This document shows, one piece after another, positions 20,936 through 35,039 of a stretch of DNA of 64,000 nucleotides (its first letter is position 1; every line of letters begins with the position of its first letter). The DNA is from a virus, in IMG/VR virus record IMGVR_UViG_3300030106_006480, positions 1 to 64,000 of that record; one strand, given 5' to 3'. The notes beneath the pieces were generated by a model. It saw nothing but the letters and a program-made list of their open reading frames with translations, was not told the DNA's origin and did not search any database. The position numbers were made by a program, and so were the translations under genes.

Positions 20936-20963
20936 TAGGCAGTTTTACGTCATACCCAGGACG
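20936..20963 (-). ncRNA. Family A H-type pseudoknot, copy 1
   Basis: RNA CGUC-CUGGGUAU-GACG-UAAAAC-UGCCUA. Confidence 0.75.
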
Positions 20964-20993
20964 ATCCCGTCAGAAGAGATAAATGCAGTCTAC

Positions 20994-21815
20994 TTAGAAG
21001 GGAGCTGGAGCACCATCTTCCATAACAGATCCTGATGGATCAGGTAGATCAGGAAGACCAGTTAAGTTAGAACCATAAGGTTCTGCTTGTGGTTTAGATT
21101 CTTGTTCCATATCAGCCCATAGCGAGCCTGGCTTCATTCCTTCAGACATAACTGTCTTTGTTTCAGGAGCTTTGTTTTGCCCATCTCTATCTGCTGGGGG
21201 CAAAGTCATCTTATCAACTTGAATTTTGACACGACTTTGCCAGTTACCTTGTTTATCTTTCCAACTGTCACATACCAGTTTGCCACTAATAGTAATTCCT
21301 TTCCCCTTCTTTGTTAGCTTGCACATCCAGTCTGCAAGTTTATATCGATCATCTGGATTACTAATTGCATAGACATTAAATAAATCACTTTGTCCTTTAC
21401 CTGTTGTAACTGCAATAGTTTGATTACAAATTATCAAACCAGTCGAGGTAATTTTAAATTGACGTTCATCAGAATCATCAACTGTTTTAATTGTGGTTCC
21501 AGAAAGAATAACTTGATTGTATGGCCTGAAAGCTTGTTTCAGAATAGTAGGAAATCCTCCATGAATAGAATGTAGTTTTGATTGAAGATCATGGCGGAGG
21601 TTAGCTCCTTGAATATGAATTGGATCATTAACTTGAACAGTGTCATGCAACTCTTTACCAGTTGCTCCATAGCACCAGTATTCCAAATCAAGATCTGATT
21701 TAGAAGGACCGGACTTTGGAATCAAAATAGGAAAGACATAAGCCTTGGATGTGTTGCTTGTATAAACCTCACGAGGTTTTTCAAGCACTTGGGCACAAAC
21801 GGTAAGTACGTTCAT
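20994..21815 (-). CDS. ssb: Tandem OB-fold single-stranded DNA-binding protein
   Basis: 'NQVILSG...KKGKGITISGKLVCDSWKDKQG...SRVKIQV'; acidic tail ending '...APF'. Confidence 0.75.
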   Translation of the reverse strand: MNVLTVCAQVLEKPREVYTSNTSKAYVFPILIPKSGPSKSDLDLEYWCYGATGKELHDTVQVNDPIHIQGANLRHDLQSKLHSIHGGFPTILKQAFRPYNQVILSGTTIKTVDDSDERQFKITSTGLIICNQTIAVTTGKGQSDLFNVYAISNPDDRYKLADWMCKLTKKGKGITISGKLVCDSWKDKQGNWQSRVKIQVDKMTLPPADRDGQNKAPETKTVMSEGMKPGSLWADMEQESKPQAEPYGSNLTGLPDLPDPSGSVMEDGAPAPF

Positions 21816-21836
21816 GATAGTTAGGTGTGTTGTGAT

Positions 21837-21866
21837 TGAAGCAGTTTAAGGTCATACTTCAGGACC
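21837..21866 (-). ncRNA. Family A H-type pseudoknot, copy 2
   Basis: RNA GGUC-CUGAAGUAU-GACC-UUAAAC-UGCUUCA. Confidence 0.8.
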
Positions 21867-21871
21867 GTCAA

Positions 21872-23683
21872 TCAATGAACATCAAACCAAGTTTTACCAA
21901 CTTTGGCATCACCTTCAATTGGACAAAGGAAGTTAAAATGTTCACCTGATTGAATAAAAGCTTTAAGAATATTTTCTTTTACAATTTCAATGTTTTGTTT
22001 AGGACAAGAAAGTTCTATTTCATCATGGATCATTGCATGTTGATGATAATCAATACCGTAAACAAGACCAGCTTCTATTAAATTGTTATGAGTATTGATA
22101 ACAACTTGCTTCATTAAAACAGCACCAGCAGCTTGGAGTAATACGTTTAGTGCTTTGAAATCAGAACGACAAAACAATGGACGTTTATCTAAACCAATTA
22201 AAAAGCCACGAGCCTGTAATGTTTTGGCAAGTGTATCTTTCAATGCTTTAATAGCAGGAATACCAGTCATAAAAGAATCAATTGCATTTTTACCAAGTTG
22301 TTTTAACTTGTTTATATCTTTCTCATTTGGATCAACAATAGTACCTGCCTTAGCTGATCCACAACCATAAAGAACTGCATAAAGCAAACGCTTACTAATA
22401 TCTCTAGTTTTTACACCAAACTTTTCTTGGTTATAAATATGAATGTCAGTGTCATCATCAATAACTAACTTGCTGTATTCACCTTCATCCCAATACGCAA
22501 GATACCCAGCCAAACATCTAAGTTCGAGAGCTTTTGCATCGCTGCCAATAAGGAACCAGTCGTCAGGAGCATGGAAAAGAGAACGACATTCTTTCCCATA
22601 AGGACTATAAGCTGCCGGAGTTTGGGCAGTGTTCGGATTACGATGTGAGCAACGGCCAGTAATACAACCATTAGTAATAACGTCCCCATGTATATAACCA
22701 TCAGGAGAGACAAGCTTGAGCCAAGCGTTGGTACCACTTTGAATTTGGCCTAAACGTTTTTTAATTAACATGTATTCTGCCAAAGGCTGAGCTTCTGGAT
22801 ATGGAAGATTTTCTAAAACATCGTCATTCAAGATTGGATTACCTTTCTCAGTTAGTTTCTCAGGAGTCCAATTATATTTATCTTTAAATCTTTGAATAAT
22901 ATGAGCACGAGAGTTTGGATTAAAAACTGTAACAGAATCTTTTAAACGTTTACCTGTACGTTCTGACCAACGTTCTTCAACAATTGGAGGAAAGATTTCT
23001 TTTAATTTATCTTCGATTTGCTTGCTGCGTACTGATAATTTATCCACAAGAGACAAAGCTGCATCAGTATCAAAAGGAAAACCTGATCGAATTTGTCTCT
23101 CAATACATGTAGCAAATTCATGTTCAAGCGCAAGCGATTCCGAGTGGATAGATTGTTGTTGAATAAGTTGTAATAATTTTGTCGTAACGTTGACATCTTG
23201 AATGCAATAGGCAAGCATTTCTTCTGAAAATTCAGAGAAATCTTGGAAGTCAATCTTCTTATCTGAGAGTCTATAGCCCCATGCTTTGAGGCTAGCTGAA
23301 CCTCTAAGTTTATTTGGGAGACGGTAGTATATCTCACTGTCCAGTTCTTCAAGTTTTTCTTTGGGCCAAATGAGTCTGGTGCAGATGAGTGTGTCAATGA
23401 TTTGTAAAGCAGGGGAATTAAATAATTCAAAGCCAGGCCAAAGTTTCTTTAGCACTGGAATGTCATAAAACAAAATGTTATGTCCAATCAAACAATCAGC
23501 GGCAGCCAAATGATCAAGAGCATCAGTAATGCGATCAGGCCCATAGCTAAAAGTTTGTTTTCTATTGAAGTCATATATGACGATACAGAAAATTTCTGTA
23601 ACTTCATCATATAATCCATTTGATTCAATATCAAATACGAACCAGTTTTCATGTTTGGTACCGGGCTTCAGGTTGAACATCAA
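21872..23683 (-). CDS. polA: Family A DNA polymerase (T7-like, 3'-5' exo + pol)
   Basis: 'FDIESNG', 'GHNILFYD', 'TGRCSHRNPN', 'DAKALELR', 'KRLLYAVLYG' (Tyr at the 762-equivalent position), 'IHDE'. Confidence 0.95.
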   Translation of the reverse strand: MMFNLKPGTKHENWFVFDIESNGLYDEVTEIFCIVIYDFNRKQTFSYGPDRITDALDHLAAADCLIGHNILFYDIPVLKKLWPGFELFNSPALQIIDTLICTRLIWPKEKLEELDSEIYYRLPNKLRGSASLKAWGYRLSDKKIDFQDFSEFSEEMLAYCIQDVNVTTKLLQLIQQQSIHSESLALEHEFATCIERQIRSGFPFDTDAALSLVDKLSVRSKQIEDKLKEIFPPIVEERWSERTGKRLKDSVTVFNPNSRAHIIQRFKDKYNWTPEKLTEKGNPILNDDVLENLPYPEAQPLAEYMLIKKRLGQIQSGTNAWLKLVSPDGYIHGDVITNGCITGRCSHRNPNTAQTPAAYSPYGKECRSLFHAPDDWFLIGSDAKALELRCLAGYLAYWDEGEYSKLVIDDDTDIHIYNQEKFGVKTRDISKRLLYAVLYGCGSAKAGTIVDPNEKDINKLKQLGKNAIDSFMTGIPAIKALKDTLAKTLQARGFLIGLDKRPLFCRSDFKALNVLLQAAGAVLMKQVVINTHNNLIEAGLVYGIDYHQHAMIHDEIELSCPKQNIEIVKENILKAFIQSGEHFNFLCPIEGDAKVGKTWFDVH

Positions 23684-23879
23684 GATTAGTTCCAGGGAAA
23701 ATGTTATTTTTATTGATCCAGTTTAGAACTTCCATTGCCTCTGTTTTTGTAGGAAAACAAAGAGCATGTTTAAGATCTGCGCGAGACTTGATATCAAAAA
23801 GAAGAAAACAATTTTCTTTTTTGTTAGCGCCAATACACTTAATCTTGTCCGGGTCTTGGAAAGAAATTACATAAGACAT
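23649..23879 (-). CDS. Hypothetical protein
   Basis: 76 aa ORF overlapping the polA start. Confidence 0.6.
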   Translation of the reverse strand: MSYVISFQDPDKIKCIGANKKENCFLLFDIKSRADLKHALCFPTKTEAMEVLNWINKNNIFPGTNLDVQPEARYQT

Positions 23880-23892
23880 TTGAAATAATTAA

Positions 23893-23918
23893 GGGACGAA
23901 ATAAGATTATCTCGTCCC
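23893..23918. terminator. Intergenic hairpin
   Basis: GGGACGA...TCGTCCC inverted repeat. Confidence 0.45.
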
Positions 23919-23927
23919 AGAAAAAAG

Positions 23928-24689
23928 TCAAGCTTTTTGTCTATGCATTTTGTTGTATCCATTGATTCCATTTTTCTTGAGGACAGAAACAGCTTTGCTT
24001 GCTGAACTGCCTGCACGCTGAACACCATGAATCAATAAAGCAAAGGGTTTATCACCAAAACAATGGGAATCATCATGATCTATTTCTAGACCAAGTTGAT
24101 CTGCTTCTTCTTGTGAATAAACTACTTGAGCAGTGCGCTTGAAAACATCTGGATTTTCTGTAACCAAATGATCTAACTCACCACCAAGAGAAGCAGTAAG
24201 ATAAAGATTAGAAGGCAAGTGATCCTTATAATGAAGCCAATAATTAAGCGACTTTGTATAGGCATAGAATTTAATTTCGGGAAAGACACCAGCAGTTAGA
24301 ATCCATGAACGAAAGTAAGCATCGCTAAACATATCACCTGCTTCATGGATCCGAAACAATTCGTAATTACGATGAGACTGTCTGATTGAATCCATGACAA
24401 GCATAGAAATTAGCAGAGCATCTTCACCGCATTGTTTTGTAATAGCTTCGTAGTTATGCCAACGCAATTGACGGCATTGTGGAGACCGAGCTTCAGACAT
24501 TGCAGCAAAACAACGGTAATCAATTTGATCACCTTTTGGTTTGTCTAAAATCTTACCTGTCTCACGATTAGCAAAAGTGCGACAGACACCAGCTCTTGGA
24601 CAAGAATAGCCAGCTGGAATGGAAAAGATGAAACGATCATCTAGCTTTCCGTTGGAATAGGAAAACTTGAGAAGCTTTGTGAATTGCAT
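23928..24689 (-). CDS. GP88-like protein
   Basis: 'FSIPAGYSCP', 'CFAA', 'FRIHEAGD', 'FYAYTK'. Confidence 0.7.
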   Translation of the reverse strand: MQFTKLLKFSYSNGKLDDRFIFSIPAGYSCPRAGVCRTFANRETGKILDKPKGDQIDYRCFAAMSEARSPQCRQLRWHNYEAITKQCGEDALLISMLVMDSIRQSHRNYELFRIHEAGDMFSDAYFRSWILTAGVFPEIKFYAYTKSLNYWLHYKDHLPSNLYLTASLGGELDHLVTENPDVFKRTAQVVYSQEEADQLGLEIDHDDSHCFGDKPFALLIHGVQRAGSSASKAVSVLKKNGINGYNKMHRQKA

Positions 24690-24713
24690 AGTGAAATGTA
24701 ATAAAGTGAAATA

Positions 24714-24740
24714 CTGGGGCTTACACCAAAGGATGCCCAG
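24714..24740 (-). ncRNA. Family B bulged stem-loop, copy 1
   Basis: RNA CUGGG-CAUC-CUUU-GGUG-UAAGC-CCCAG. Confidence 0.7.
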
Positions 24741-24745
24741 GAATT

Positions 24746-25144
24746 TTAAAGCTGGTGCTTTTCAAATTCAATATGGTTCAAGACTTGTTTTGCTTTCCAG
24801 ACAGCAGCCTCACCAATAAAGAATTCAACGTTACAACCAAGAGCTTTAGATGCTGTTTTAATATCTTTCATTTGTTCGCCAGAAAACTTAAGTGTTTTTT
24901 GATGATTAAAAGTTGCTGATCTATCTGTAATAAAAGATCTATTTTCTTCAATCCATTTATCTACTTCTTGTTTGTTATAGAAATGTTCTCTACGTGAACT
25001 AATTTCTAAATCAGGAGTTGGAAACGTATTATTTTTTACTTTCTTATATAGAGTGTAACGAGACATAAGAGTCTTACTTAAGACTTCTTTTGCTGAATAG
25101 CATTTGCTACGGCGTTCACGAAAAAGCTGAGCTTTAGATGGCAT
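24746..25144 (-). CDS. AlpA-like HTH DNA-binding protein
   Basis: 'SAKEVLSKTLMSRYTLYKKVKNNTFPTP...YNKQEVDKWI'; start moved to ATG 25144. Confidence 0.7.
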   Translation of the reverse strand: MPSKAQLFRERRSKCYSAKEVLSKTLMSRYTLYKKVKNNTFPTPDLEISSRREHFYNKQEVDKWIEENRSFITDRSATFNHQKTLKFSGEQMKDIKTASKALGCNVEFFIGEAAVWKAKQVLNHIEFEKHQL

Positions 25145-25146
25145 AG

Positions 25147-25175
25147 TTGATGAAAAGGAGAATGACTTGTAGAAT
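25147..25175 (+). promoter_or_regulatory. Sigma70-type promoter driving the riboswitch
   Basis: TTGATG (25147) - 17 nt - TAGAAT (25170); predicted start site ~25181-25182, at the aptamer 5' end. Confidence 0.7.
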
Positions 25176-25182
25176 AAAGGAA

Positions 25183-25234
25183 CGTTCACCTCAATGCGAG
25201 GCGCAATTCATCCGGCCAGGGAACGGGGACCGGA
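25183..25234 (+). ncRNA. Downstream-peptide (glutamine-II) riboswitch
   Basis: CGUUCA-CCUC..GAGG-CGCAAUUCA-UCCGG-CCAGG-GAACG-GGGA-CCGGA: P1 CGUUC/GAACG, P2 CCUC/GAGG, pseudoknot UCCGG/CCGGA; followed by a YRG peptide. Confidence 0.9.
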
Positions 25235-25252
25235 GTATTAGCGGAGGACACC

Positions 25253-25402
25253 ATGTCTAACGAGACACTCACTTATCGTGGCGTTAAGTATAAGCGCGGC
25301 GATATCATGACAACTTGGATGATGAACGAAAAACTGAAGCGTCAGCGTGAAGAGTTTGAAGCAAAGCTCGATCGTTTACGCCAAAAAGGAGAGATTGTTT
25401 AA
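25253..25402 (+). CDS. DUF4278-type downstream peptide (49 aa); not in ORF track
   Basis: MSNETLTYRGVKYKRGDIM...; 'LTYRGVKY' motif; GGAGG SD upstream. Confidence 0.85.
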   Translation: MSNETLTYRGVKYKRGDIMTTWMMNEKLKRQREEFEAKLDRLRQKGEIV

Positions 25403-25626
25403 GCCCAAGGCCAACCTAGTTCAACGTCTGCTTGCCAGATATCTGGATCAATAGGACGCTGCTTTACATACAAATTAAATAGGCGTTGCATTTCTTCTAA
25501 TGTGACGCCTACTTTTTTTGCTATAACAGCTATGTTGGTCTGGCCTTTGTAGACAAGATCAAGAGCATCTTCAAGCGATATGTTTCCATGTTTTCCGTTT
25601 GACAATGTCATGAATACAGCCTTCAC
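25399..25626 (-). CDS. Small HTH-like hypothetical protein
   Basis: 'NIAVIAKKVGVTLEEM'. Confidence 0.55.
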   Translation of the reverse strand: MKAVFMTLSNGKHGNISLEDALDLVYKGQTNIAVIAKKVGVTLEEMQRLFNLYVKQRPIDPDIWQADVELGWPWA

Positions 25627-25933
25627 TTACACCATATATTTTACTCAATTCTCTTTGAGCTTTTCCCTCTGCCCATTCACGTCTTATTTGAATTACATTT
25701 GAATCAAACAAGATTGCATTAGGATGCTTTTCACCTGTATTAAAACCTCCATGTTTTCGTTTAGGCGGAGGATTCCAGTGAACACCAGCATCATCTAATA
25801 CTTCAGTGCTTCGCCAATGATGATTACATTTTAGACAACGATAGTAACGTCTAGTCACATAGTCTCCTTGATGAGTGGACATAACTTTTGTCCCTGTTTT
25901 TGATTGTGCATAACATTTAGGACAATTCATCAA
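25571..25933 (-). CDS. NrdR-like Zn ribbon + C-terminal HTH
   Basis: 'MNCPKC...TKVMST...RRYYRCLKCNHHWRSTE'; 'QRELSKIYGVSEGCIHDIV'. Confidence 0.65.
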   Translation of the reverse strand: MMNCPKCYAQSKTGTKVMSTHQGDYVTRRYYRCLKCNHHWRSTEVLDDAGVHWNPPPKRKHGGFNTGEKHPNAILFDSNVIQIRREWAEGKAQRELSKIYGVSEGCIHDIVKRKTWKHIA

Positions 25934-26595
25934 TCTTTACTCCACATAGTTTCAGAAATAATTGGAAACTGTTCTTTAAAAATTGTTTTACATTGTTCTG
26001 CAATTTCTTTATGCTCTAGTTGCGTACCATTTCCTGTACGCAAGTCAATGTAATGCATCCAAGATTTTAAAGGGCCTGTCATATACATACGAGTAGGACA
26101 AGCAAGAGGCAGGATAGACCTGGCACATTCTTTGGCAACACCATCGCTAACCATCTCTTGATAGAGATGTTCAGCATCTTCAAACAAAATACTAATGCGT
26201 CTGTAGTAATCAGTAAGTTTGCCTTTACCCAATCGACTTGGCAAATCATCAATTGAATTCTGACGATTTTTAAGATCTTGTCCTCTCAAGTGAGGAATAA
26301 TTGGCTTACCCATCTCACCAGTATTTGCATAGCGTTGAGAGAATTCTTGGAACGAGAATGTCCAGTGCCTTAGTATCTGAGGGCTGATGGCCCTGGTGGT
26401 ATTGATCTCAAGGCACATAGATGCCATTTCAAAAGGAGACCAATGCTTTTGTTTAATTAAATAACGGAGAAGCTTTGGAGCAGTCTCCATGTTGTCTTGA
26501 TTCTTGGGAGCAGAAACGCGTGCCATATGGACAATCATTTCTTCAGCATTTGGAGTAGTCCAAATGAGTTTGACAGAAGGATTTTGAAAAGGCAT
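25930..26595 (-). CDS. thyX: Flavin-dependent thymidylate synthase
   Basis: 'HWSPFEM', 'QILRHWTFSFQEFSQRY', 'AKECARSILP', 'TQLEH'; start moved to ATG 26595. Confidence 0.93.
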   Translation of the reverse strand: MPFQNPSVKLIWTTPNAEEMIVHMARVSAPKNQDNMETAPKLLRYLIKQKHWSPFEMASMCLEINTTRAISPQILRHWTFSFQEFSQRYANTGEMGKPIIPHLRGQDLKNRQNSIDDLPSRLGKGKLTDYYRRISILFEDAEHLYQEMVSDGVAKECARSILPLACPTRMYMTGPLKSWMHYIDLRTGNGTQLEHKEIAEQCKTIFKEQFPIISETMWSKD

Positions 26596-26602
26596 TGATT
26601 GT

Positions 26603-26830
26603 TTATTTAGTTTGGATTGGGGCAAGCCGATGACCAAGATAATCTTCTGTGCGTGAGGTGTAGTCCCATTGAACTACATAATGACAAAAGACTGCACCAG
26701 CACGGTTCTTTTTTTCTATAATGTTTTTAACCGTACCAACACGGTCAAGTATTTTGTCTTTACCGTGATACACATTTCGATGTGTGACACGATCACCAAT
26801 GGAAAATGCTTGAGATTTGCGTAGAGACAT
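26603..26830 (-). CDS. Small SH3/KOW-like hypothetical protein
   Basis: 'FSIGDRV...VGTV...YVVQWD'; start moved to ATG 26830. Confidence 0.6.
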   Translation of the reverse strand: MSLRKSQAFSIGDRVTHRNVYHGKDKILDRVGTVKNIIEKKNRAGAVFCHYVVQWDYTSRTEDYLGHRLAPIQTK

Positions 26831-26837
26831 GATGAAT

Positions 26838-26873
26838 AAAAAAATCCTCAGCCAGCGCAAACCAACTGAGGAT
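26838..26873 (-). terminator. Intrinsic terminator
   Basis: AUCCUCAGUUGG-UUUGCG-CUGGCUGAGGAU followed by a U run. Confidence 0.65.
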
Positions 26874-26896
26874 GAATCGTCCAAGTAGATATTAGA

Positions 26897-27250
26897 TCAA
26901 GAAGCTGCGATGTCAATTGCAGAGAGATCAACTCCTGCTTTTTCCATCTTGCTTAACATTTCAACCATGATGTTTGCATTCTCCTGGGTCTTAGCCATGA
27001 AAGCTTTAGAACGTTCAGCACTCATTGTGTGAACAGTCCCATTGGCTTCCTTGTATGCCCAGGAGCCATCAGGTTGCATCTCCCCTTGGGTAATAGCCAT
27101 ACGCTCGCTGTTGCGGGTATAGCGAACCTGTAGGTTACGAACATCTGTTAAACCATCTTGATCAACCCAGGTAAGACCAAGGTTGTAAAGATTGTTGTCA
27201 TCCATATAGCCATGAGGCTGAGGGATGAGGTGCTTGATTGCTCCAAACAT
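26897..27250 (-). CDS. Hypothetical protein
   Basis: Start moved to ATG 27250 because the longer ORF runs into the tRNA. Confidence 0.7.
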   Translation of the reverse strand: MFGAIKHLIPQPHGYMDDNNLYNLGLTWVDQDGLTDVRNLQVRYTRNSERMAITQGEMQPDGSWAYKEANGTVHTMSAERSKAFMAKTQENANIMVEMLSKMEKAGVDLSAIDIAAS

Positions 27251-27274
27251 GATGAAATGAAATGTGATTAGGTT

Positions 27275-27363
27275 TGGTGAGAGTGGTGGGACTTGAACCC
27301 ACATAGCCATTACTGACCGACAGATTTTAAGTCTGTTGCGTCTACCAATTCCGCCACACTCTC
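27275..27363 (-). tRNA. tRNA-Leu(UAA) with encoded CCA
   Basis: GAGAGTG acceptor / CACTCTC-ACCA; D-loop GGAATTGGTAGAC; anticodon arm ACAGA-CTTAAAA-TCTGT; long variable arm; GGTTCAAGTCC T-loop. Confidence 0.96.
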
Positions 27364-27367
27364 GTTG

Positions 27368-27404
27368 CTAGGACTTACACCGTGTCAAGGGACCGGATGC
27401 CTAG
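27368..27404 (-). ncRNA. Family B bulged stem-loop, copy 2 (4 nt upstream of the tRNA 5' end)
   Basis: RNA CUAGG-CAUCCG-GUCCCUUGAC-A-CGGUG-UAAGU-CCUAG. Confidence 0.75.
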
Positions 27405-27410
27405 TCGTAT

Positions 27411-29210
27411 TTAGGTTAGTTGTTCTTCTCTTTTTATCAACGCAACTTTGAATGCGTCTTCAACATTGGAACGTTCGAGATCACTGAGTCTTTTGTTGCC
27501 AATATCACCGATTTGATTAACAGTCATGACACCATTATTAACAAAGAGTTGAATGGTGTAACGAGGCTGCCCATCAATCATGGTCAGAATGATGAGTTGT
27601 CTCATCTTCTTGATATCATCTGCATAACCATGACCAGCACCAACACAGTTGCGGACGGCTCGACCCCAAGCTGCTAGCTGGTGTGTGTCATAAGGCTGTA
27701 AGAAGCTATACTTAACATCTTCACCGTCATTGCATTGCTCAACTTTGATGGGTTGAGGAAATAGCTTCTGAGGCAAGTTAACGTTAGCGTTGCTGATCTT
27801 CCATGTCTCTGCCATGAGATGATCGTGCCATTCCATTAAACGCCAGCGCTTGGGCTTGATGTTGTCAGTACGATCAGTAGTAATGCATTGGCAAAGCATG
27901 TCATAAGTATCACGCCAATCTGTCATGTAGACATGGCGCTGTCCTGTAGCAGCGTCAGCACTTAGAAGGTAACCTCCGCATTCACTTCTTTGTTGGTCAA
28001 GTTCTGACTGTTGCTTGTACTTTTGATAGAGCATGTTGAGAAATGATTCAACAGGCAAGTTTTCTTGCATCCACTGAAAACCAGTTCTGTTGTGAGAGTT
28101 AATTAGTACTATTTTAGAGAGCCAATCAAACCTGGAATGAAGTAGATTGTGATCAATGTCACGATAAACTTCTTTGATTTCATTGACAGATGATAAGAAC
28201 TGATAAAGAATTCCATAGGGTGGTTTAAGTGCTTCACGATCATACATATTTTGTGCAATATTATTTTCATGAATGACTTTGGTGTCATTCATTGCATTTA
28301 AAACTAAAGATCTAAACCACTTGGCAGATAGTACATCTTGCATGTATTCACAACAGAAATGTTTACGCAATATATGGATAATATTGTCTACATCATGGAC
28401 GTACATGGTCTCACTACCCATCCATCTAGGCCTGGACCAGTACTTTGACATAATATTTTCAAACTTGTTGTTCTCAGGATCAAGCCGAGTAAAGATATCA
28501 TCGCTTGATCCTCCTTTGAATTGAGGAATATCTTTGGCAAGTTGGTTTTCCCATTTTTGAACAGTGCGATAAACAGTCCAGGTCTTACCATAAGACTTGA
28601 GGTGATGCTCACTACGGTTGGGATCTTTCCAGTAGTTACCGGTATAGCCATCCATGATGTCATCTTTAGTCATCAGGATTGTTTTGCGATACCAATAACT
28701 GCGGCCATCTTTGATACGTGGAAGCATCATTGATTCATCATTTTGATTAAACATGCACTTACCAAGTGTGCGACGACTTGGGATGTATACATCAGTACAT
28801 TGTTTACGAGCTGCTGCTGTATCTCGATACGCAATTGTCAAGCCATAGATGTATGAATCATCTTTTGACTGTAAAAGCTTGCTGCCATTCGGAGGCAGCC
28901 ATGCAGCTACCCACAATTGGCGATGATAGTAGACAACAGCAAATGGTTCAGGTTCCTGTCCAAAGACAGGCTTCGTAAATAAGTGAACTTTGTCTGGTGC
29001 TTTCTCTTTGTTGAGCTGTTCTACTGTTTGTTCCCACAAGTTGTCTTTAACGACGTGCTTGGGGAACATGTTTGAAGGACGACCACTGGGAAATGTTTTC
29101 CGCTTGTTCTTGTTACGATTTTCTGTAGCTATAGGGGCTGCAAGTTTCTTACGCGTTTGGTCATAGCCTGCAACTTCAAGTGCAAGCTGGTTAGGAAGAT
29201 TGAAATGCAT
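27411..29210 (-). CDS. Large protein with C-terminal PcfJ-like domain
   Basis: 'WHDHL...QLAAWGRAVRNCVG...YTIQL...NQI'. Confidence 0.65.
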   Translation of the reverse strand: MHFNLPNQLALEVAGYDQTRKKLAAPIATENRNKNKRKTFPSGRPSNMFPKHVVKDNLWEQTVEQLNKEKAPDKVHLFTKPVFGQEPEPFAVVYYHRQLWVAAWLPPNGSKLLQSKDDSYIYGLTIAYRDTAAARKQCTDVYIPSRRTLGKCMFNQNDESMMLPRIKDGRSYWYRKTILMTKDDIMDGYTGNYWKDPNRSEHHLKSYGKTWTVYRTVQKWENQLAKDIPQFKGGSSDDIFTRLDPENNKFENIMSKYWSRPRWMGSETMYVHDVDNIIHILRKHFCCEYMQDVLSAKWFRSLVLNAMNDTKVIHENNIAQNMYDREALKPPYGILYQFLSSVNEIKEVYRDIDHNLLHSRFDWLSKIVLINSHNRTGFQWMQENLPVESFLNMLYQKYKQQSELDQQRSECGGYLLSADAATGQRHVYMTDWRDTYDMLCQCITTDRTDNIKPKRWRLMEWHDHLMAETWKISNANVNLPQKLFPQPIKVEQCNDGEDVKYSFLQPYDTHQLAAWGRAVRNCVGAGHGYADDIKKMRQLIILTMIDGQPRYTIQLFVNNGVMTVNQIGDIGNKRLSDLERSNVEDAFKVALIKREEQLT

Positions 29211-29240
29211 GATTTAGTGTAGTGTGATGTGTTGTAAAAG

Positions 29241-29280
29241 ATTGGGACTTACATGCAGTCGGGGAAATGCAATGCCCAAT
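29241..29280 (-). ncRNA. Family B bulged stem-loop, copy 3
   Basis: RNA AUUGGG-CAU-UGCA-UUUCCCCGAC-UGCA-UG-UAAGU-CCCAAU. Confidence 0.75.
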
Positions 29281-29283
29281 AGA

Positions 29284-29583
29284 TTAGAACTCGATGCAGT
29301 CTGGATCGTCTGCAACCCAATCAAGATCTAGTTGATCTAAGAATTGAATTTGTTCTGGTTGAGAACCGTCGATAGGAGGTGGTAACTCTCCTTCTTCTAG
29401 TTCAAAACACGCACTACAGACTGCTGGACCATATTCAGCAGGATGGGCAAAATCTGCTGGATGGTAAGTTGCAGGAATTGTTTGAACCATGTCAGCAATC
29501 TCGGCAACAGAGATCCAAGAAGATGTTCCATGTTCATCGACAAGATCAAGTTCAATAGAGCGGACATAAAGAATTTCAGTCAT
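29284..29583 (-). CDS. Acidic hypothetical protein
   Basis: Start moved to ATG 29583; 'PAEYGPAVC'. Confidence 0.65.
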   Translation of the reverse strand: MTEILYVRSIELDLVDEHGTSSWISVAEIADMVQTIPATYHPADFAHPAEYGPAVCSACFELEEGELPPPIDGSQPEQIQFLDQLDLDWVADDPDCIEF

Positions 29584-29752
29584 TAGAGTTGATGTTAAGG
29601 ATTTGGACCGCCGCATTTGATAATGCTTCGGCTTGGTCAAAATACTTGTTCCACTCATTAGAACCGATTGGGTACTGTTGTGCCTCAGTTCTTTTGGTAT
29701 CTGCTATACCTGATACAGTTTGATAAGCAACCATCAAAGTTTGGTGATCCAT
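29576..29752 (-). CDS. 58 aa hypothetical protein (MDHQTLMVAY...); not in ORF track
   Basis: Preceded by a family A element and an AC-rich leader. Confidence 0.65.
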   Translation of the reverse strand: MDHQTLMVAYQTVSGIADTKRTEAQQYPIGSNEWNKYFDQAEALSNAAVQILNINSND

Positions 29753-29777
29753 AGTGAAGTGTAGTGTGATGTGGACA

Positions 29778-29805
29778 TAGACAGTTTAAGGTCTTATCTA
29801 GGACC
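29778..29805 (-). ncRNA. Family A H-type pseudoknot, copy 3
   Basis: RNA GGUC-CUAGAUAA-GACC-UUAAAC-UGUCUA. Confidence 0.75.
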
Positions 29806-29844
29806 ATGTAAGGGTATTAATTATAAGTATTATTGATTAGTAGA

Positions 29845-29888
29845 TGTCCCCCCTTGGTAGCCCCCTGGGGGGTGCAGGGGGGGTACCC
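29845..29888. other. C-run/G-run inverted repeat next to an AT-rich tract
   Basis: GTCCCCCCTTGGTAGCCCCCTGGGGGGTGCAGGGGGGGTACCC. Confidence 0.5.
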
Positions 29889-29905
29889 ATTGAGATATTC
29901 CATAT

Positions 29906-30274
29906 TTAGATGTGTTCTGGTTTTAGATTAAACTTTTGAATTGCATCATCCGTTGCTTCTTGATCGCCATCGAGGACGACCAGTCCGCGTATACGATTGG
30001 ATGCTGCATGCCAAATATAACTAGTGCAGTCATATCGCTCAGTATCTTTCCCATCAACTACAACAGTGATGGGATACTGTCCAGTCTCGATCTTAGGAGG
30101 GATTGTCTTGTCATTAGTAATGATACTGATTAGATCAAACCCTGCCTTGTCATGGATCTCTCCATGTAGATAGATACCGTCCAGGCCGTAGAAAAGCTCT
30201 CCGTCTTTTAAGTGTTTACGATTGAGGGTACCAAAACCTTCTGCATACCAAGTGGGTTTCATTAGTCTGACCAC
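29906..30274 (-). CDS. Hypothetical protein
   Basis: ORF on the arm's coding strand. Confidence 0.6.
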   Translation of the reverse strand: MVRLMKPTWYAEGFGTLNRKHLKDGELFYGLDGIYLHGEIHDKAGFDLISIITNDKTIPPKIETGQYPITVVVDGKDTERYDCTSYIWHAASNRIRGLVVLDGDQEATDDAIQKFNLKPEHI

Positions 30275-30552
30275 ATGTCAGGTTTCTTATTGTATTCAGG
30301 AAGATCTGGTGTTTCTTCTGGTTTCAAGTCAGGAGGACTGAGCTTTGGAAGATCACAGATTTTAATGTTGCGTTTGCTGAGGCCGGTTCCGGGGATCCCC
30401 ACAGATCCACGGATGCCGGACTCTCTTGCATTTAGAGTGAGCTGGAACGGACCAAGTTTGAATGACTTGGAGAATGATTGTGGGCCACGTTCTGTGAAGT
30501 TGATGCCTGCAATCGTCTTGTCAAAGTTGATTGCGCTGCGTTTGCGTGTCAT
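30262..30552 (-). CDS. DUF4236-like protein
   Basis: 'KSFKLGPFQLTL...GSVGIPGTGLS'. Confidence 0.65.
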   Translation of the reverse strand: MTRKRSAINFDKTIAGINFTERGPQSFSKSFKLGPFQLTLNARESGIRGSVGIPGTGLSKRNIKICDLPKLSPPDLKPEETPDLPEYNKKPDMWSD

Positions 30553-30570
30553 GATTTTGAATTGAAATGA

Positions 30571-32058
30571 TTAGTAAGTGATCCTGTAGTGTGTATATCC
30601 TGCAGGACGTTTCCGAAGTTTCTCGAATAAAGCTTCAGCTTCTTTACGAGTATCAAATGAACCATGGTATTTGTAGTGACTATCTATCCAACACTTTTGA
30701 ATACCGTTAGCTCTTGCTACATAGGATTCTTTAATCAAATACTCTTCAACTTTGAAATGTTTGAGGTCTGTCATGATTCAAGATCCTCTTTGAAGATAAA
30801 TCCTTTAGCTCTAGCTTTATCTTTAATCTTCTTATCTTGTATATCTTTACCGTGCATATAGCTTTCGACTGATTGTCCAGGTTTTGGGCCTCTTGTTGGA
30901 AGTTTAGTAACTTTGTATTCAGTTGCAGGAACCCAGCTTTGTTTAGATCGTTTGCGTGTCATGATGAAGCGTTTGGATAGAGTTGATTGTAGATTGAAAC
31001 TGTATTGCGATGGAGTGAGTTAACTCGCATAAAGTTAGCTTCAAGCCATTCGTGTAATGCAATTTCAATAACTCGGGATTCTTCAACCCCGAGTATGTCT
31101 GACAACAGTTCAATCATTTGCTGATCGATCTGTGTGATTGGGGTTACCTTGTAGTTTGATGGGTCAGTCATCAAGAATTTGCTCTGCTAGTTGTTGCATT
31201 TTTGTCTCTGCATCTTTCCACTTGTTCAAGTAATACTGCTCTTCCTCTGGTGTATCAGAGTTGAGCATCATTGCATGGTAAGTGGTGCATTGACGAAATT
31301 GTTTTGTGAAGGGATCTTCACCCCACGGCTCTGGTTGCTCCAGAAGAATTGAAGATGACACGATTCTTTTGAGTGTAGATACGAATGTGTTTTAGGACAG
31401 TAGAGTCACTGATGCCATACTTCATTGCTATTTCTTTAGCTGATAAGCCTACGAAATAGTATTGATAAGCAGCTTCAGCGATCTCTTCAGGCAGCATGGA
31501 GTAACCTCCTTTGATGTACTTTCTGGGCATTGAGTCTTAGCTGTCGTGTGAAGGAAGTTCAGGGAAGTTAGGATCATCAGGATCCATATTGGTTTTGTAA
31601 TGGACTGAACCATCTGGTGAGACAAAGCCAGCCATGTACTTACCACCTGCATTCTCAGCTATTTCAGCAAATTTTGCGGTGAGCCTCATGAACTGAAGTT
31701 TTTGAGAATCAGGAACATTCTCTGGAGTGATGTCTTTAGACATGATGAATTAATAAGCAATGATAAGTTTTACTAATGTGTTAATGAGTTAAGACCAGTA
31801 GTCTTTTCTGCATCTGAATTGAAGCATCTCGTAAGTCCAGCTGCTTCCTTCAAAGTCAACAATGGTTTTCATTGCTGCTTGAACTGCAGACCAGTCTTCT
31901 GGACGTGAGGGGCATACAGACATGTACTGCACACAAGCAGCGTCAAGTTTGTTCCATGCTTCTTTCCAAGCATCATCATCAAACTCGGGTTCTGTTGGCA
32001 TCTCACGGCCCTTCTCTTCAAAGTAAGGACCAAAGATGTCTTTGATTGTTTCAAGCAT
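30571..32058 (-). CDS. Run of small early hypothetical ORFs (30571-30774, 30771-30962, 30959-31174, 31164-31361, 31318-31530 HTH-like, 31537-31743, 31789-32058)
   Basis: Tightly packed, same strand, several ATGA-type overlaps; 31318-31530 has 'LSAKEIAMKYGISDSTVLKHI'. Confidence 0.6.
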
Positions 32059-32083
32059 AGATTTTGGTGTAGTAAAGGAAAAG

Positions 32084-32114
32084 TACTAGGACTTACGCTG
32101 TAAGCTGCCTAGTA
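32084..32114 (-). ncRNA. Family B bulged stem-loop, copy 4
   Basis: RNA UACUAGG-CA-GCU-UAC-AGC-G-UAAGU-CCUAGUA. Confidence 0.75.
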
Positions 32115-32128
32115 GTTGTGTTACTTAA

Positions 32129-32780
32129 TCAACAGTAATAAACAGGTTCAGTGGGATAATGCCTGGCATAGTCATCACCAAACGTGATATCAATAGCAGT
32201 TAATCCTCTGCTGTCGCTAATCAAAGGTTGGTCTTGGTAGTCGTATCCAATTGAGAGACGGATTGCTTCTTTGATTGCTTGCTTCTTACTGAAGACAAAG
32301 ATCGTGTTAAGCGGTTCGCCTTCTTCGTACCACCATCCACCTTCTTCTGGCCCACCATATTTTTGCCAAGTGTTGTGGACTTGGATGGTGATTGGATCTT
32401 GGTTGTCGAACTCTTTGTACCAGTTGTAGATGTTGATCCAGTACCTTGCGTATCCTGTTTTGGGATACTGTTTGGTGTAGGTTTTGAGTGAATTAGACAT
32501 CTGAAGTTGTTGTAAAGAACTGTACAGATAACAGTAATGATTACAATGATGTGCAAGATGACATCATCGTTATTGTTGTCATGCATTAGTTAGTTCCTCC
32601 ATATTCTTTGTGATAGTCATCTTCGCCTGATACCGCTTCAGACATAAGTTCTTGCATAAGTTGTTCTTGCTCATTAGCTATGTCGTTAAGGACAAATAAC
32701 TGATCAGCAGTGTATTCAGACTTCTCCTGGTCATCGAAGTTGTCTTGTTGCTCATGGAGCCAAGTTTTGATAAGTGACAT
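32129..32780 (-). CDS. Small early hypothetical ORFs (32129-32500 'YGGPEEGGWWY'; 32586-32780)
   Basis: Minus-strand ORFs with AC-rich leaders. Confidence 0.6.
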
Positions 32781-32805
32781 GATGCGTAGTGAAATAAGGT
32801 TTGCA

Positions 32806-32833
32806 TGAGCAGTTTAAGGACATGCTCAGGTCC
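32806..32833 (-). ncRNA. Family A H-type pseudoknot, copy 4
   Basis: RNA GGAC-CUGAGCAU-GUCC-UUAAAC-UGCUCA. Confidence 0.8.
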
Positions 32834-32838
32834 AAGTA

Positions 32839-33781
32839 CTAAATTTCGTCCATGCAGTCAGGCATGAAAGCAACGCATTCCTTGATTAGGTCTGAGTTGT
32901 TAAGGCATTTGAGAGACTCTTCAGTGTGAAAGTCATCGCTCATATCTTCCTGACATTCAAGATAGCTATCGATCAGGATTTTGCGTTGAGCTTTGGTGAT
33001 GTAGGTACTAGGCATAATTTAGTTGTTGTGTGAAGTGTAGGGTTGAACTTCAATAGATTGAGCTTGAGTCTTCATTGTGTAGCTAACAGCGTAAACACCG
33101 GCCACAACAAGAAGGACACAAGAGATACAACCAACAATCCAGGTAGGAACATCTGATTTGTAGTAAGAGTCAAGACAGACGTATCTGTTTGAACCAAGCT
33201 TGATGATTTGTTTCATGATTTGGTGAGCCAGTGATCCTGGACTTGTTGTGTGAGTTTAAAGTTGTTGAGTTTGACTTTAATCTGCACGTCATCCCATACG
33301 TTGGTTGGTACACAAACTGTCTTGGTTTCAGATTGACCATCAACGATGATCATTTCTCTGTACCAGTTTGTTTCCCTATTTCTGGGATAAGCAATGACGA
33401 TGGCTCTATAGTCATCGCCTGCAGATAATACCATCCATTCCTTGTCACGAGCAGCAAGGATAGCTTGTTCCTGGAGCTGTTTAGTAGATGGATGGGTCGG
33501 GAGAGATGAATCGTGCAAGACTTCGTCGTGCATTGTTGAATCCATGTTTGATGTTGTCTTTGGTTGGGACTTTGGCATCACCGATGAGGTCACCGATGTC
33601 ATGAAGAAGACTCTTTGTCTTCTTCCTTAGTTTGAATTGAGTCATTGTCAGAGAATGCATAGAGTGTAACCATGAATGCTCCTGTGGCAATACCAATAGG
33701 AGACATTCCAAGAAGTGCGGCACCACCTAGCAAAGCTGCTGTGATGCCTACTGATTGTCGCTTAGTCTTGTCCATTGTCAA
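32839..33781 (-). CDS. Small early hypothetical ORFs (32839-33015, not in track; 33019-33216 TM; 33213-33602; 33599-33781 TM)
   Basis: Packed minus-strand ORFs. Confidence 0.55.
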
Positions 33782-33811
33782 GATAAGAAACGTTTGAGCA
33801 GGATATAGAGT

Positions 33812-33847
33812 CCTGCAGAGAAGGCCCGTAGGCCCTCAGTGCAAGAG
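33812..33847 (-). ncRNA. Long intergenic hairpin with UACG tetraloop (element D)
   Basis: RNA UCUUGCA-CU-GAGGGCC-UACG-GGCCUUC-UC-UGCAGGA. Confidence 0.6.
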
Positions 33848-34051
33848 TCAGTTAGCTAAGTAACGGATATGCATGCAGTGTTTAGCATCACCTACCCATG
33901 AACGCATAGTAACCAAACGATGATAGTCAGGTTGCTTCAGGCATTCCTGGGTAGCAATCTTATTCAGATGTTTCTGCCCTGCTACGCAAAGCAAAGCACC
34001 GATACCAACACCTGCAATGATGGCAGTGATAGGAGTGAGAGGAGAACGCAT
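33848..34051 (-). CDS. Small membrane protein
   Basis: MRSPLTPITAIIAGVGIGALLCVAG...; start moved to the ATG after element C1. Confidence 0.6.
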   Translation of the reverse strand: MRSPLTPITAIIAGVGIGALLCVAGQKHLNKIATQECLKQPDYHRLVTMRSWVGDAKHCMHIRYLAN

Positions 34052-34069
34052 GATGTGTGATGTAATAGA

Positions 34070-34137
34070 GATGCCACGGGATTGTGGCAATAACTGCCGG
34101 AGGGTTTGCACCTCCGGACCCGCTTTAACGGATCAGT
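34070..34137 (-). ncRNA. Family C tRNA-like element, copy 1
   Basis: RNA ACUG-AUCCG UUAAAG CGGGU-CCGGAGG UGCAAAC CCUCCGG-CAGU-UAU-UGCCAC AAUCCC GUGGCA. Confidence 0.7.
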
Positions 34138-34345
34138 CTTTATCAGAGAAATAACCGACTGCTATGCCAATGGCACCGCAAATCACAAATGTAATGGGAT
34201 GAGTGGTCATAAACTCCCACTGCCAGTGATAGAACATACGCACAGGAGGTAGCGTAAGATACATTGCAAAAGCTAGTAAACAACCAAGGACTGCACCAAC
34301 TAAAGTTGCACCCAAGGTAGACAGCTTTTCAAATGAAGTGAACAT
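34133..34345 (-). CDS. Small two-TM membrane protein
   Basis: Two hydrophobic segments in 70 aa. Confidence 0.6.
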   Translation of the reverse strand: MFTSFEKLSTLGATLVGAVLGCLLAFAMYLTLPPVRMFYHWQWEFMTTHPITFVICGAIGIAVGYFSDKD

Positions 34346-34366
34346 AGTTTAGTGTTTGAAACAATA

Positions 34367-34432
34367 GATGCCACTTGATTGTGGCAATAGTTGAGTAGGG
34401 GATTCGATCCCCCGGCATCACGCCTGGTCAGA
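34367..34432 (-). ncRNA. Family C tRNA-like element, copy 2
   Basis: RNA ...GGCG UGA UGCC-GGGGG AUCGAAU CCCCU-ACUCAAC-UAU-UGCCAC AAUCAA GUGGCA. Confidence 0.65.
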
Positions 34433-34986
34433 TGACCATCTCAACTGGAGATTCCATCATCTCCACAAAGGAGAGAACAGATATCTCTGAGTAGCCACAC
34501 TCTTCTGGGTGACCTTCGTAGTTATGTTCGACCGAAAGATCGAACGCAACCGAGTCGGCCTCCTCCTTAGAGAAGTGTGCGCTGTGTTGTTGACCGTTGA
34601 GGATGACGAAGAACACGTCAGTCGCTCCGAGTGTGCGGTACCTATCTCCGCTGTAGGTAATAACTGGTGGGGGCATTGCACCCCCACTGGCCGCTTGAAC
34701 GGACTCAGTTGACTTGAGCAACAATAGTTACTGCTCTACCACCAAACTCTGGGCTATTGAACATCTTCATGCCTAACTTTGCGTCAGCCATGAATTCAAT
34801 CAATGCCTTGTAAAGAGCACGGCAGTATTTCATCTGCTCTCGTTGTTGATCAGAATCATTAGCCAATAGCCAAGTCATCTGTCCTTCAGCAACAAGATAA
34901 TCAACTGTTTGCAAGATATCTTCTTGGTCAACCGCTGCGTTAGCGTTGGCTTTCCAATCAAATTTCCAGCTGGTTTGAGTTTGCAT
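34428..34986 (-). CDS. First two early ORFs (34428-34724, 34705-34986)
   Basis: Minus-strand ORFs at the start of the early arm. Confidence 0.6.
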
Positions 34987-35008
34987 GATGAAGTGAAGTG
35001 AGTGGACT

Positions 35009-35037
35009 GCTACGGTTTAACGTCCATCAGCTAGACG
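35009..35037 (-). ncRNA. Family A pseudoknot, divergent copy 5
   Basis: RNA CGUC-UAGCUGAUG-GACG-UUAAAC-CGUAGC. Confidence 0.55.
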
Positions 35038-35039
35038 AA

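Follow-up and report, generated by a model that had tools for sequence, protein, structure and literature searches.

INTRODUCTION

Coremin, GUCCGAAGACGUUAAACUAC (PMC10520033), is an exoribonuclease-resistant RNA (xrRNA) that lies within the 3' untranslated region (UTR) in eukaryotic RNA viruses (beny-, cucumo- and other viruses). It is made up of a hairpin of 3-5 bp with a YGAD or YGNNAD loop, a conserved spacer of 10 nt, GUUAAACUAC, and a second hairpin, hp2 (PMC6546385, PMC10520033), which is necessary for its resistance to Xrn1 (PMC6546385). In the published model an A-rich strand occupies the groove of stem 1, and the other parts are the loop base C5 and a short stem 2; a Watson-Crick variant, xrRNA-WCC, exists (PMC10321173). 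Coremin stalls Xrn1 as well as scanning ribosomes and stimulates -1 frameshifting (PMC6546385, PMC10520033, PMC10321173); the frameshifting screen behind the coremin variants was performed in E. coli (PMC10520033, PMC10321173). In the literature that we searched, no paper mentions both coremin and phage. Here we describe small folded RNA elements (families A, B and C) in a 64-kb window of the IMG/VR virus record IMGVR_UViG_3300030106_006480 (74,142 bp, completeness estimate 98%), the window being the whole stretch of DNA that was analysed. Judged by sequence and predicted fold, family A is a knotted prokaryotic variant of coremin, its resistance to exoribonucleases being itself a prediction, and we tentatively propose that A and B act as portable mechanical roadblocks which would shield the cistron downstream from 5'-end-dependent decay. 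The source of the window is an S-EIV1-like marine cyanophage: its family-A DNA polymerase (PolA) shares 61% identity with the counterpart in Synechococcus phage S-EIV1, and its gene order is that of S-EIV1.

Other described systems share single traits with these elements. The operator of T4 gene 32 is a pseudoknot followed by an unstructured leader up to the AUG. Family A has the same arrangement as the T4/T2 gene 32 operator, i.e. a 5' H-type pseudoknot and an unstructured leader to the AUG of a single-strand DNA-binding protein (SSB) gene; unlike that operator, which is unique to its own gene and has its knot ~40-70 nt upstream, A heads many unrelated genes and also occurs in phages with an unrelated SSB. 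The PeSL cassettes of T4-type phages are likewise repeated structured elements at the borders of small early genes, but they join a stem-loop to an early promoter and function in the shuffling of DNA, whereas A and B carry no promoter and are selected for their RNA fold. The 5' mRNA stabilisers of Gram-positive bacteria and phage SP82, together with obstacles to RNase E scanning (PMC9943677), resemble A in that a 5' barrier, in our case a proposed one, protects the cistron downstream; these known stabilisers are bound ribosomes, Shine-Dalgarno (SD)-like sequences or simple hairpins, and none of them is a conserved portable pseudoknot family.

RESULTS AND DISCUSSION

Family A is a pseudoknot selected in RNA

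All minus-strand spacers were extracted and folded (RNAfold) and then subjected to pattern scans, which yielded five copies of family A, four of family B and three of family C. A first-pass annotation, made from the letters of the stretch, had counted five, four and two; scans and covariance models confirm its figures for A and B, while that for C has to be raised to three. The copies of family A are the following:

35009..35037, minus strand: A copy 1 (33.6 bits, E-value 7e-6), the first element of the arm, with a weaker 4-bp stem 2; precedes gene 34986-34705
32806..32833, minus strand: A copy 2 (44.1 bits), stem 1 GGAC/GUCC and stem 2 UGAGCA/UGCUCA; 5 nt past a stop codon, leader 32805-32781
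29778..29805, minus strand: A copy 3 (47.2 bits), leader 29777-29753, AUG at 29752
21837..21866, minus strand: A copy 4 (40.1 bits), 5 nt past the PolA stop codon, with the AUG (21815) of the SSB-like gene 22 nt downstream
20936..20963, minus strand: A copy 5 (44.7 bits), linker UAAAAC; precedes gene 20911-19781 (DUF5895)

Covariance-model E-values of these five copies range from 8e-10 to 7e-6 in a 3-Mb search. The element is an H-type pseudoknot of 28-31 nt with the consensus CGUC-C-UGRGYA-U-GACG-UUAAAC-UGCYYA, in which stem 1 (CGUC/GACG) is combined with a one-base loop C, a 6-bp Watson-Crick stem 2 and a UUAAAC strand along stem 1. AAAC (150 copies) never varies, and the same is true of the loop C and of stem 1's G-C pairs; a U follows AAAC in 149 of the 150 copies.

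To compare relatives, 80 S-EIV1-like phage loci were obtained from IMG/VR by alignment of three PolA proteins. With the five A copies as input, a covariance model gave 276 matches (E<=1), all on the coding strand except for one marginal match. Both helices covary among 127 distinct copies from ~80 related phages: 97.1% of the alignment cells are paired, and the covariation score is 0.434 as compared to 0.202 after shuffling, a value reached by 0 of 500 shuffles. Registers slid against the true one pair at 19-50% only. Stem 1 is paired to 99.8%; its outer pair occurs in four types, and at the third pair UA and AU are swapped. Pair 4-21 is CG in 100, GC in 11, UA in 8 and AU in 6 copies. Since stem 1 lay outside the search model, its covariation provides an independent test. 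Stem 2 is paired to 95.3% and shows changes on both sides in 5 of 6 pairs (pair 13-31: 63 GC, 61 AU). Comparing G-U with A-C pairs, we found ratios of 80:3 in A and 68:23 in B. This large excess of G-U indicates that the fold is selected on the sense strand, i.e. in RNA. With both helices of A and the outer helix of B covarying, the earlier claim of selection on RNA structure rather than DNA duplication is borne out.

When the window and bacterial motif loci were scanned against Rfam, both at the gathering threshold and at E<=1, A, B and C had no match; within the arm, only a tRNA and a plus-strand glutamine-II riboswitch were matched. The three families are thus uncatalogued, as had been supposed from the letters of the stretch. 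Several known motifs were considered for A and rejected. A preQ1-I-like riboswitch has a similar topology, but an expression platform is lacking, as is an Rfam match, and a genome can hold as many as 7 copies, which stand before unrelated genes. The integron attC core GTTRRRY resembles GUUAAAC by eye, but its G is a covarying stem base. Reading TAAACT as a -10 box, or the element as a sigma-54 GG-N10-GC site, fits neither the spacing nor family B; moreover, sigma-70-like promoters are depleted in the arm (23 versus 37.6 +/- 5.8 expected), and A copy 4 is the only element overlapping one. Neither A nor B is an intrinsic terminator, as no U run follows either of them.

Comparison of family A with coremin

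Family A shares with coremin the CGUC/GACG stem, in which covariation is tolerated, a pyrimidine (C) as first loop base and the (G)UUAAACU spacer. Both tolerate stems of 3-5 bp and an exchange of U to A at the second spacer base; the UAAAAC linker of A copy 5 equals the published U14A variants. Stem 1 has the properties that coremin requires of hp1 (3-5 bp, structure over sequence). The spacer of A reads (G)UUAAACUGC compared to GUUAAACUAC in coremin, CUAC being replaced by CUGC, the UGC of which enters stem 2. The two differ in their hosts (dsDNA phages and bacteria for A, eukaryotic RNA viruses for coremin), in their position (5' of cistrons versus 3' UTR), in the loop, which in A comprises 8-9 nt (C-UGRGYA-U) and violates YGAD, and in stem 2, which in A is a 6-bp Watson-Crick helix formed with the bases after UUAAAC.

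The likeness extends to xrRNA-WCC, which is also an H-type knot of a hairpin loop with the spacer, in which loop 1 is a single base and stem 1 is accompanied by an A-rich strand. Stem 2 of A is a Watson-Crick helix as in xrRNA-WCC, though longer and shifted by one base: the WCC stem 2 has 3 bp and uses spacer bases 18-20, whereas that of A comprises 6-7 bp, beginning one base further on. WCC has G as its first loop base, and family A has C. Frameshift stimulation by xrRNA-WCC occurs without hp2, while hp2 is needed to stall Xrn1. To our knowledge, the three-dimensional structure of coremin is still unsolved.

Some relatives carry hairpins of the coremin type directly at the site before the SSB-like gene:

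L030:11398-11421, coremin-type hexaloop hairpin before the SSB-like gene
L057:4997, the same
L059:11848, the same
L060:11848, the same

Here the hexaloop hairpin GUC-CGAAAU-GAC is followed by UUAAAC-UAY, and in L030 and L059/L060 the hexaloop is flanked as CGUC-CGAAAU-GACG. Its loop fits YGNNAD, a rule followed by these four variants (CGAAAU) only. The match of L030 to coremin extends to GACGUUAAACUAC, and in some relatives the CGAAAU hexaloop is followed by UUAAACUAC.

Family B is a bulged hairpin

Family B is represented by four copies in the window:

32086..32112, minus strand: B copy 1 (44.2 bits), subclass with a CAGC...GCG inner stem; 27 nt before the AUG at 32058
29241..29279, minus strand: B copy 2 (53 bits), a long hairpin with the loop motif UCCCCGAC; 31 nt before the AUG of the 599-aa PcfJ-like gene
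27368..27404, minus strand: B copy 3 (52.5 bits), 6 nt past a stop codon and 4 nt before tRNA-Leu
24714..24740, minus strand: B copy 4 (43.9 bits), 24 nt before the AUG of the GP88-family gene (24689)

The consensus is a bulged hairpin, CURGG-CA[hairpin]UG-UAAGY-CCYAG. A covariance model from the four copies found 130 matches (E<=0.1), on the coding strand in all cases. The outer helix is paired to 99.7% (pair 8-87: 73 GC, 34 AU, 4 UA). The inner helix has at its base a conserved C-G and then, in most copies, A-U. When B was compared with named phages by BLAST, S-EIV1 and chance partial matches within genes were all that came back, and B, like C, matches nothing catalogued. Readings of B as a kink-turn, 11-nt receptor, UAA/GAN or loop-E motif conflict with the paired G9/G10-C pairs, and the dianthovirus xrRNA paper offers no support for B as an xrRNA of the dianthovirus type. 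The 8-mer UAAGUCCC of B, which we take to be present also in 16S rRNA, carries no weight.

The placement of one B copy before a tRNA, listed earlier as an exception to the usual order, is correct: the copy at 27404-27368 lies 4 nt before the following gene.

27275..27363, minus strand: tRNA-Leu (anticodon UAA), between B copy 3 and a 27-nt G-poor leader; AUG at 27250

The same order of B and tRNA-Leu is found in the relatives L004:6357 and L052:7214. In two further relatives a tRNA stands between the PolA stop codon and the element, namely at L037:11803-11875 (before B) and L068:11589-11660 (before A).

Elements are placed at fixed distances and belong to the downstream gene

Minus-strand genes span ~35.8 kb down to 3.4 kb of the window, and the plus-strand late arm begins at 35.9 kb. 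The region of 20.9-35.1 kb, which holds the elements, is the promoter-proximal part of the minus arm, with many small open reading frames (ORFs) and the PolA, SSB-like, ThyX, GP88-family and PcfJ-like genes. Throughout the 74-kb genome no A or B occurs beyond this region or on the plus strand, in agreement with the previously noted absence from the late arm. The confinement to strand and position recurs in relatives, one of the checks that had been proposed: in four complete relatives the copies are confined to a single strand of a single ~20-kb arm, one relative carrying six B but no A.

The upstream stop codon lies exactly 5 nt before stem 1 of A in 57 of 128 copies and nearer in 3 of 128. 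The AUG follows 19-22 nt past stem 2 in 88 of 134 copies, and this distance is unchanged where the stop codon is distant; behind B it lies 21-32 nt downstream in most copies. A copies 3 and 5 had been described correctly as having no adjacent stop codon, and the same applies to A copy 1, which heads the first gene of the arm without an upstream cistron (the nearest upstream minus-strand ORF ends at 35588).

The leaders between element and AUG have a G content of 4.9% behind A and 4.8% behind B and contain essentially no SD-like words (no SD-like 4-mer among 130 leaders). The median minimum free energy of the 130 leaders is 0, with one below -3 kcal/mol. An example is given by the leader of the SSB-like gene:

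21816..21836, minus strand: unstructured, G-poor, SD-free leader between A copy 4 and the AUG

SD-like motifs are, however, scarce across the whole phage genome, and A-like copies in Firmicutes carry normal SDs, so the lack of an SD is not a property of the element. Thus, the first-pass description of a G-poor leader without SD stands, but this leader, with its 5% G, is a host or lineage trait outside the motif. Two leaders, 29211-29231 after B copy 2 and 29753-29773 after A copy 3 (both minus strand), have an identical 16-nt stretch in common, CACAUCACACUACACU; such identity behind different elements hints at leader duplication or conversion. A similar G-poor leader, ending in AUC AUG, precedes gene 19507-18578 (minus strand), upstream of which (18578-19560) no A or B was detected.

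The junction between PolA and the SSB-like gene was surveyed in 53 non-redundant relatives by locating the PolA stop codon and the SSB-like start with tblastn. An element was found 24-30 nt before the SSB-like AUG in 52 of the 53 relatives (44 of A or coremin type, 8 of B). A and B are therefore interchangeable at equivalent sites in related phages. In 19 loci, 200-900 nt of extra ORFs, some of them HNH-like, are inserted between PolA and the element; these ORFs start on or beside the PolA stop codon, have no element of their own and end again 5-7 nt before the element. As the element stays at the SSB-like gene despite these insertions, it is tied to the downstream cistron. The junction appears as an insertion hot spot for ORFs in L014, L074 and 17 other loci, some of the inserted products being HNH/AP2-like (..KEWFDYK..LYWKK..).

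These data bear on the earlier suggestion that the elements are recombination handles, i.e. border repeats similar to PeSL which serve mainly for the shuffling of exchangeable cassettes. Near-identical 28-nt sequences at many gene borders, within and between genomes, would suit such handles, as would the substitution of A, coremin type and B for one another at one site and the insertion hot spot at the PolA/SSB junction. The suggestion is nevertheless weakened by the ORFs inserted there, which are coupled to the PolA stop codon and lack their own element; in addition, it is the pairing of the sense-strand RNA that is selected (80 G-U versus 3 A-C), and the depletion of sigma-70-like promoters in the arm leaves no promoter cassette. 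We regard recombination as the main role of the elements as highly improbable.

A-like knots occur in unrelated phages and in bacteria

Public collections were scanned for A-like knots with the pattern GTCCTGNNNATGACNTTAAACTG, which was found in more than 118 IMG/VR stretches and in 82 stretches of bacterial genomes from many phyla; about 4 chance matches are expected in that collection by our own estimate. In 5426 E. coli genomes the A-like pattern had no match. Convincing matches in named phages are restricted to hosts among the Firmicutes, Actinobacteria, cyanobacteria and Paracoccus. These host groups possess RNase J. In the T4-like cyanophage S-H35 the knot and a G-free 27-nt leader precede an unannotated ORF; other named carriers are phages of Nostoc, Microcystis, Bacillus, Mycobacterium, Arthrobacter, Lactobacillus, Streptococcus, Moorella and Paracoccus. 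In Firmicutes prophages and Staphylococcus phage SA13 a head-morphogenesis gene precedes the knot and the GP20 scaffold gene comes after it, with a normal SD behind the knot. In Enterococcus prophages the knot comes after a terminator hairpin instead of a stop codon. The early arm thus does carry a system that recurs along it, as the first-pass annotation had proposed for the phage as a whole, but this system is not special to the phage, being present in unrelated phages, in bacteria and in late-gene operons.

Variants with a swapped stem, CGAC/GUCG, were seen in SA13 (L397:601-626) and in L210, L215, L275 and L285. In S. aureus phietaviruses the swapped-stem knot lies between the SPP1-type head morphogenesis and GP20 genes, a late-operon context, and in Clostridia prophages it follows a Cys-rich ORF.

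In Omnitrophota, Planctomycetes, Thermodesulfobacteriota, Peptococcaceae and other groups (isolates and metagenome-assembled genomes, MAGs), the knot follows a conserved ORF of ~20 aa with a strong SD and the motif M..[RY]M[LI]RP[VI]AHC[KS][ED]GC.. (e.g. ..RPVAHCKEGC..). This tiny ORF ends at or inside the knot, always in the same frame, and its stop codon is often the UGA within GCAUGAC (loci include L212, L213, L216, L231, L247, L253, L260, L265 and L281). It belongs to no Pfam or NCBIfam family. Genes downstream of the bacterial knots encode Rrf2 regulators, YHS proteins, a cation diffusion facilitator, hemerythrin-like proteins and thiol peroxidase. Tiny ORF and knot may form a regulatory unit of leader peptide plus knot.

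With these occurrences, two further explanations can be weighed. According to the first, A and B are translational operators or enhancers: a repressor anchored at the element might spread over the leader (as T4 gp32 does from its pseudoknot, or RegA), or the 30S subunit or S1 might dock there for SD-independent initiation. The fixed distance to the AUG (19-22 nt for A, 21-32 nt for B) would agree with this, and a pseudoknot followed by an unstructured, SD-free leader of 5% G is the architecture of the T4 gene 32 operator. The presence of A or B at the SSB-like gene in 52 of 53 relatives points in the same direction, and the invariant loop bases are such as a recognised surface would have. An operator of the gene 32 type would be specific to SSB mRNA; the element, however, heads at least 8 other genes in this genome and scaffold genes elsewhere, so that an identical knot stands before many unrelated genes in one phage. 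Scaffold genes behind the knot in Firmicutes phages have ordinary SDs, the distance being variable, in three lineages the immediate neighbour of B is a tRNA gene, and the knot after the tiny ORF in bacteria of many phyla leaves no single phage protein as partner. We therefore consider an operator or enhancer function unlikely, although it deserves consideration.

The second explanation takes the knot as an obstacle to ribosomes, which past the stop codon would block post-termination sliding and thereby uncouple cistrons, or would stall or slow terminating ribosomes. The peak at exactly 5 nt between stop codon and stem matches the spacer of frameshift and read-through knots, and ORFs inserted in relatives likewise stop 5-7 nt ahead of it. 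Scanning ribosomes are blocked by coremin, which also stimulates -1 frameshifting and whose variant screen was run in E. coli, and the conserved tiny ORF of bacteria ends at or inside the knot in one fixed frame. Against this stand A copies 1, 3 and 5, which have no stop codon nearby, and the knot of Enterococcus prophages, which follows a terminator hairpin and no stop codon; also, the distance to the AUG is more constant than that to the upstream stop codon. An action on ribosomes as the primary function hence appears rather improbable to us.

A proposed roadblock to 5'-end-dependent decay

We favour the reading that A and B are portable mechanical roadblocks shielding the downstream cistron from 5'-end-dependent decay, to which we assign a probability of about 45% based on the comparisons made here. 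Each A or B module would belong to the cistron downstream of it. Lying at least 5 nt past the stop codon and ~20-30 nt before the AUG, it would be outside the footprints of both the terminating ribosome and the initiating 30S subunit, so that it could stay folded permanently. It would then block either RNase J, the 5'-to-3' exonuclease, or RNase E scanning in from a 5'-monophosphate end. After an upstream cut anywhere in the transcript, the downstream leader, start site and cistron would survive, which would insulate the cistrons from one another and raise the yield of products in high demand, e.g. the SSB-like protein.

The earlier suggestion of a 5' barrier to RNase J or RNase E thereby gains real though indirect support, from the closeness of A to coremin in sequence and topology and from the tie of the element to the gene downstream. 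Structure, conservation, strand specificity, placement, the tie to the downstream gene and the kinship with coremin are shown here, whereas the activity as a roadblock and the nucleases that it would act on are inferred. There is precedent for both kinds of block. Bacterial RNase J1 is stopped by a flaviviral xrRNA, which acts as a general mechanical block (PMC5760640), and obstacles hinder RNase E scanning from the 5'-monophosphate, protecting downstream sites (PMC9943677, PMC11194081). The 5-nt gap after the stop codon, the minimal leader and the linkage to the downstream gene fit a permanent barrier guarding the start region. Likewise, the knot before the GP20 scaffold gene in SA13 and Firmicutes prophages fits a use of the roadblock before abundant proteins, and the distribution of phage carriers fits host groups with RNase J.

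Several observations weigh against a roadblock. RNase J was above the family cut-off in only 3 of 10 motif-bearing bacterial genomes, many of which are incomplete MAGs, and thus cannot be the sole or universal target. The loop of A, C-U-G-R-G-Y-A-U, fails the YGAD/YGNNAD rule: it agrees with the rule at the first and the last two positions but has U instead of G at the second. Family A has no hp2, its leaders being unstructured, whereas coremin needs hp2 against Xrn1; resistance would therefore have to stem from the longer stem 2. Family B is not knotted, and its outer helix of 5 bp could be unzipped by an exonuclease; B is thus equivalent to A in position only. Furthermore, strict conservation of the loop bases (UUAAAC, UAAGY) would also be expected if a protein or the ribosome recognised them, and a tRNA beside B has no obvious need of a 5' shield.

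Family C and singleton structures

The start of the arm carries three copies of family C and a singleton:

34635..34710, minus strand: C copy 1, a tRNA-like domain followed by a second small pseudoknot (ACCUA..GCGG AGAU AGGUA CCGC)
34366..34431, minus strand: C copy 2 (divergent), with a T-arm-like hairpin GGGGG-AUCGAAU-CCCC, a hairpin GCCAC-AAUCAA-GUGGC and AUCU
34069..34137, minus strand: C copy 3, a canonical tRNA-like domain and a GCCAC-AAUCCC-GUGGC hairpin
33776..33847, minus strand: singleton structured spacer, a long interrupted hairpin and then a short one (RNAfold, -24.2 kcal/mol); probably the family D of the first-pass annotation

Family C is a tRNA-like domain of two hairpins used at the start of the arm. 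Besides a closing helix and two hairpins it shows a T-loop-like UGCAAAC loop, but no anticodon arm, and neither ARAGORN nor the Rfam tRNA model recognised it (only tRNA-Leu was found). In C copy 1 the closing helix ACUG/CAGU, which includes a UGA stop codon, encloses two hairpins, CCG-UUCAAG-CGG and a GC hairpin whose loop is UGCAAUG. Pieces of C recur in relatives: the 7-bp hairpin with the UGCAAAC loop covaries freely in 34 distinct copies, and the ACUG/CAGU closing helix there too includes the upstream UGA stop codon. In many C copies, among them the window copy with this part at 34635-34660 (minus strand), the 3' module folds as another small H-type pseudoknot (GCCY..GNNG AGAU RGGC A CNNC), stem 2 of which covaries (GCGG/CCGC, GCAG/CUGC, GUGG/CCAC, GCCG/CGGC); in other copies it is a plain hairpin.

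The tRNA-like traits suggest one more explanation, in which the elements are signals for an endonuclease (RNase P, Z, III or E) that cuts the early transcript into unit mRNAs, comparable to the tRNA punctuation of mitochondria. The resemblance of C to tRNA, with its T-arm-like hairpin, is consistent with processing, as are the location of the elements exactly at cistron borders and their neighbourhood to tRNA genes (B in the window, L004, L052 and L037; A after a tRNA in L068). On the other hand, helices of 4-7 bp are far below what RNase III needs, a CCA-like 3' feature is absent, A and B do not resemble known determinants of RNase P or RNase E, and the ribozyme models of Rfam gave no match. 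Processing is in our opinion an improbable function.

Organization of the arm

Taking the elements together, the promoter-proximal 14 kb of the minus (early and replication) arm is probably read as long polycistronic RNA punctuated by portable folded modules. A megablast search against named phages with the arm as query gave no match, and among public sequencing runs none with RNA was listed for 25400-35100. Strong hairpins resembling intrinsic terminators lie inside the arm:

26844-26873, minus strand: hairpin of 13 pairs followed by U7
23893-23918, minus strand: strong terminator-like hairpin

They may divide the arm into transcription units or act by read-through attenuation.

The 254-nt spacer 25145-25398 was considered as a minus-strand element and rejected, since its content is a glutamine-II riboswitch unit of the plus strand, inserted antisense within the minus-strand early arm:

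25180-25235, plus strand: glutamine-II riboswitch (54 bits, gathering score 33)
25147-25402, plus strand: the whole unit, with a TTGATG-17-TAGAAT promoter-like site, the riboswitch and a 49-aa ORF (25253-25402)

Significance

How long operon transcripts of phages give rise to unequal amounts of protein is poorly understood, especially in hosts that make no strong use of SD sequences. A conserved, portable roadblock knot would explain unequal output by segmental mRNA stability. Seen more broadly, the elements might belong to a portable kit of ~30-nt RNA punctuation in phages of many phyla and some bacteria, with a prokaryotic counterpart of the coremin xrRNA at its core acting as a universal roadblock against decay and ribosome traffic, and with B and C as further undescribed members; this wider view is possible but somewhat doubtful. 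If the roadblock reading is true, A would represent the first natural class of exoribonuclease- or scanning-resistant RNA in prokaryotes and would carry exonuclease-resistant RNAs beyond eukaryotic RNA viruses, into phages and bacteria. The hundreds of natural covarying A variants provide a test system for the coremin fold, and an insulator or stabiliser of 28 nt would be a possible synthetic-biology part for cyanobacteria and Gram-positive bacteria.

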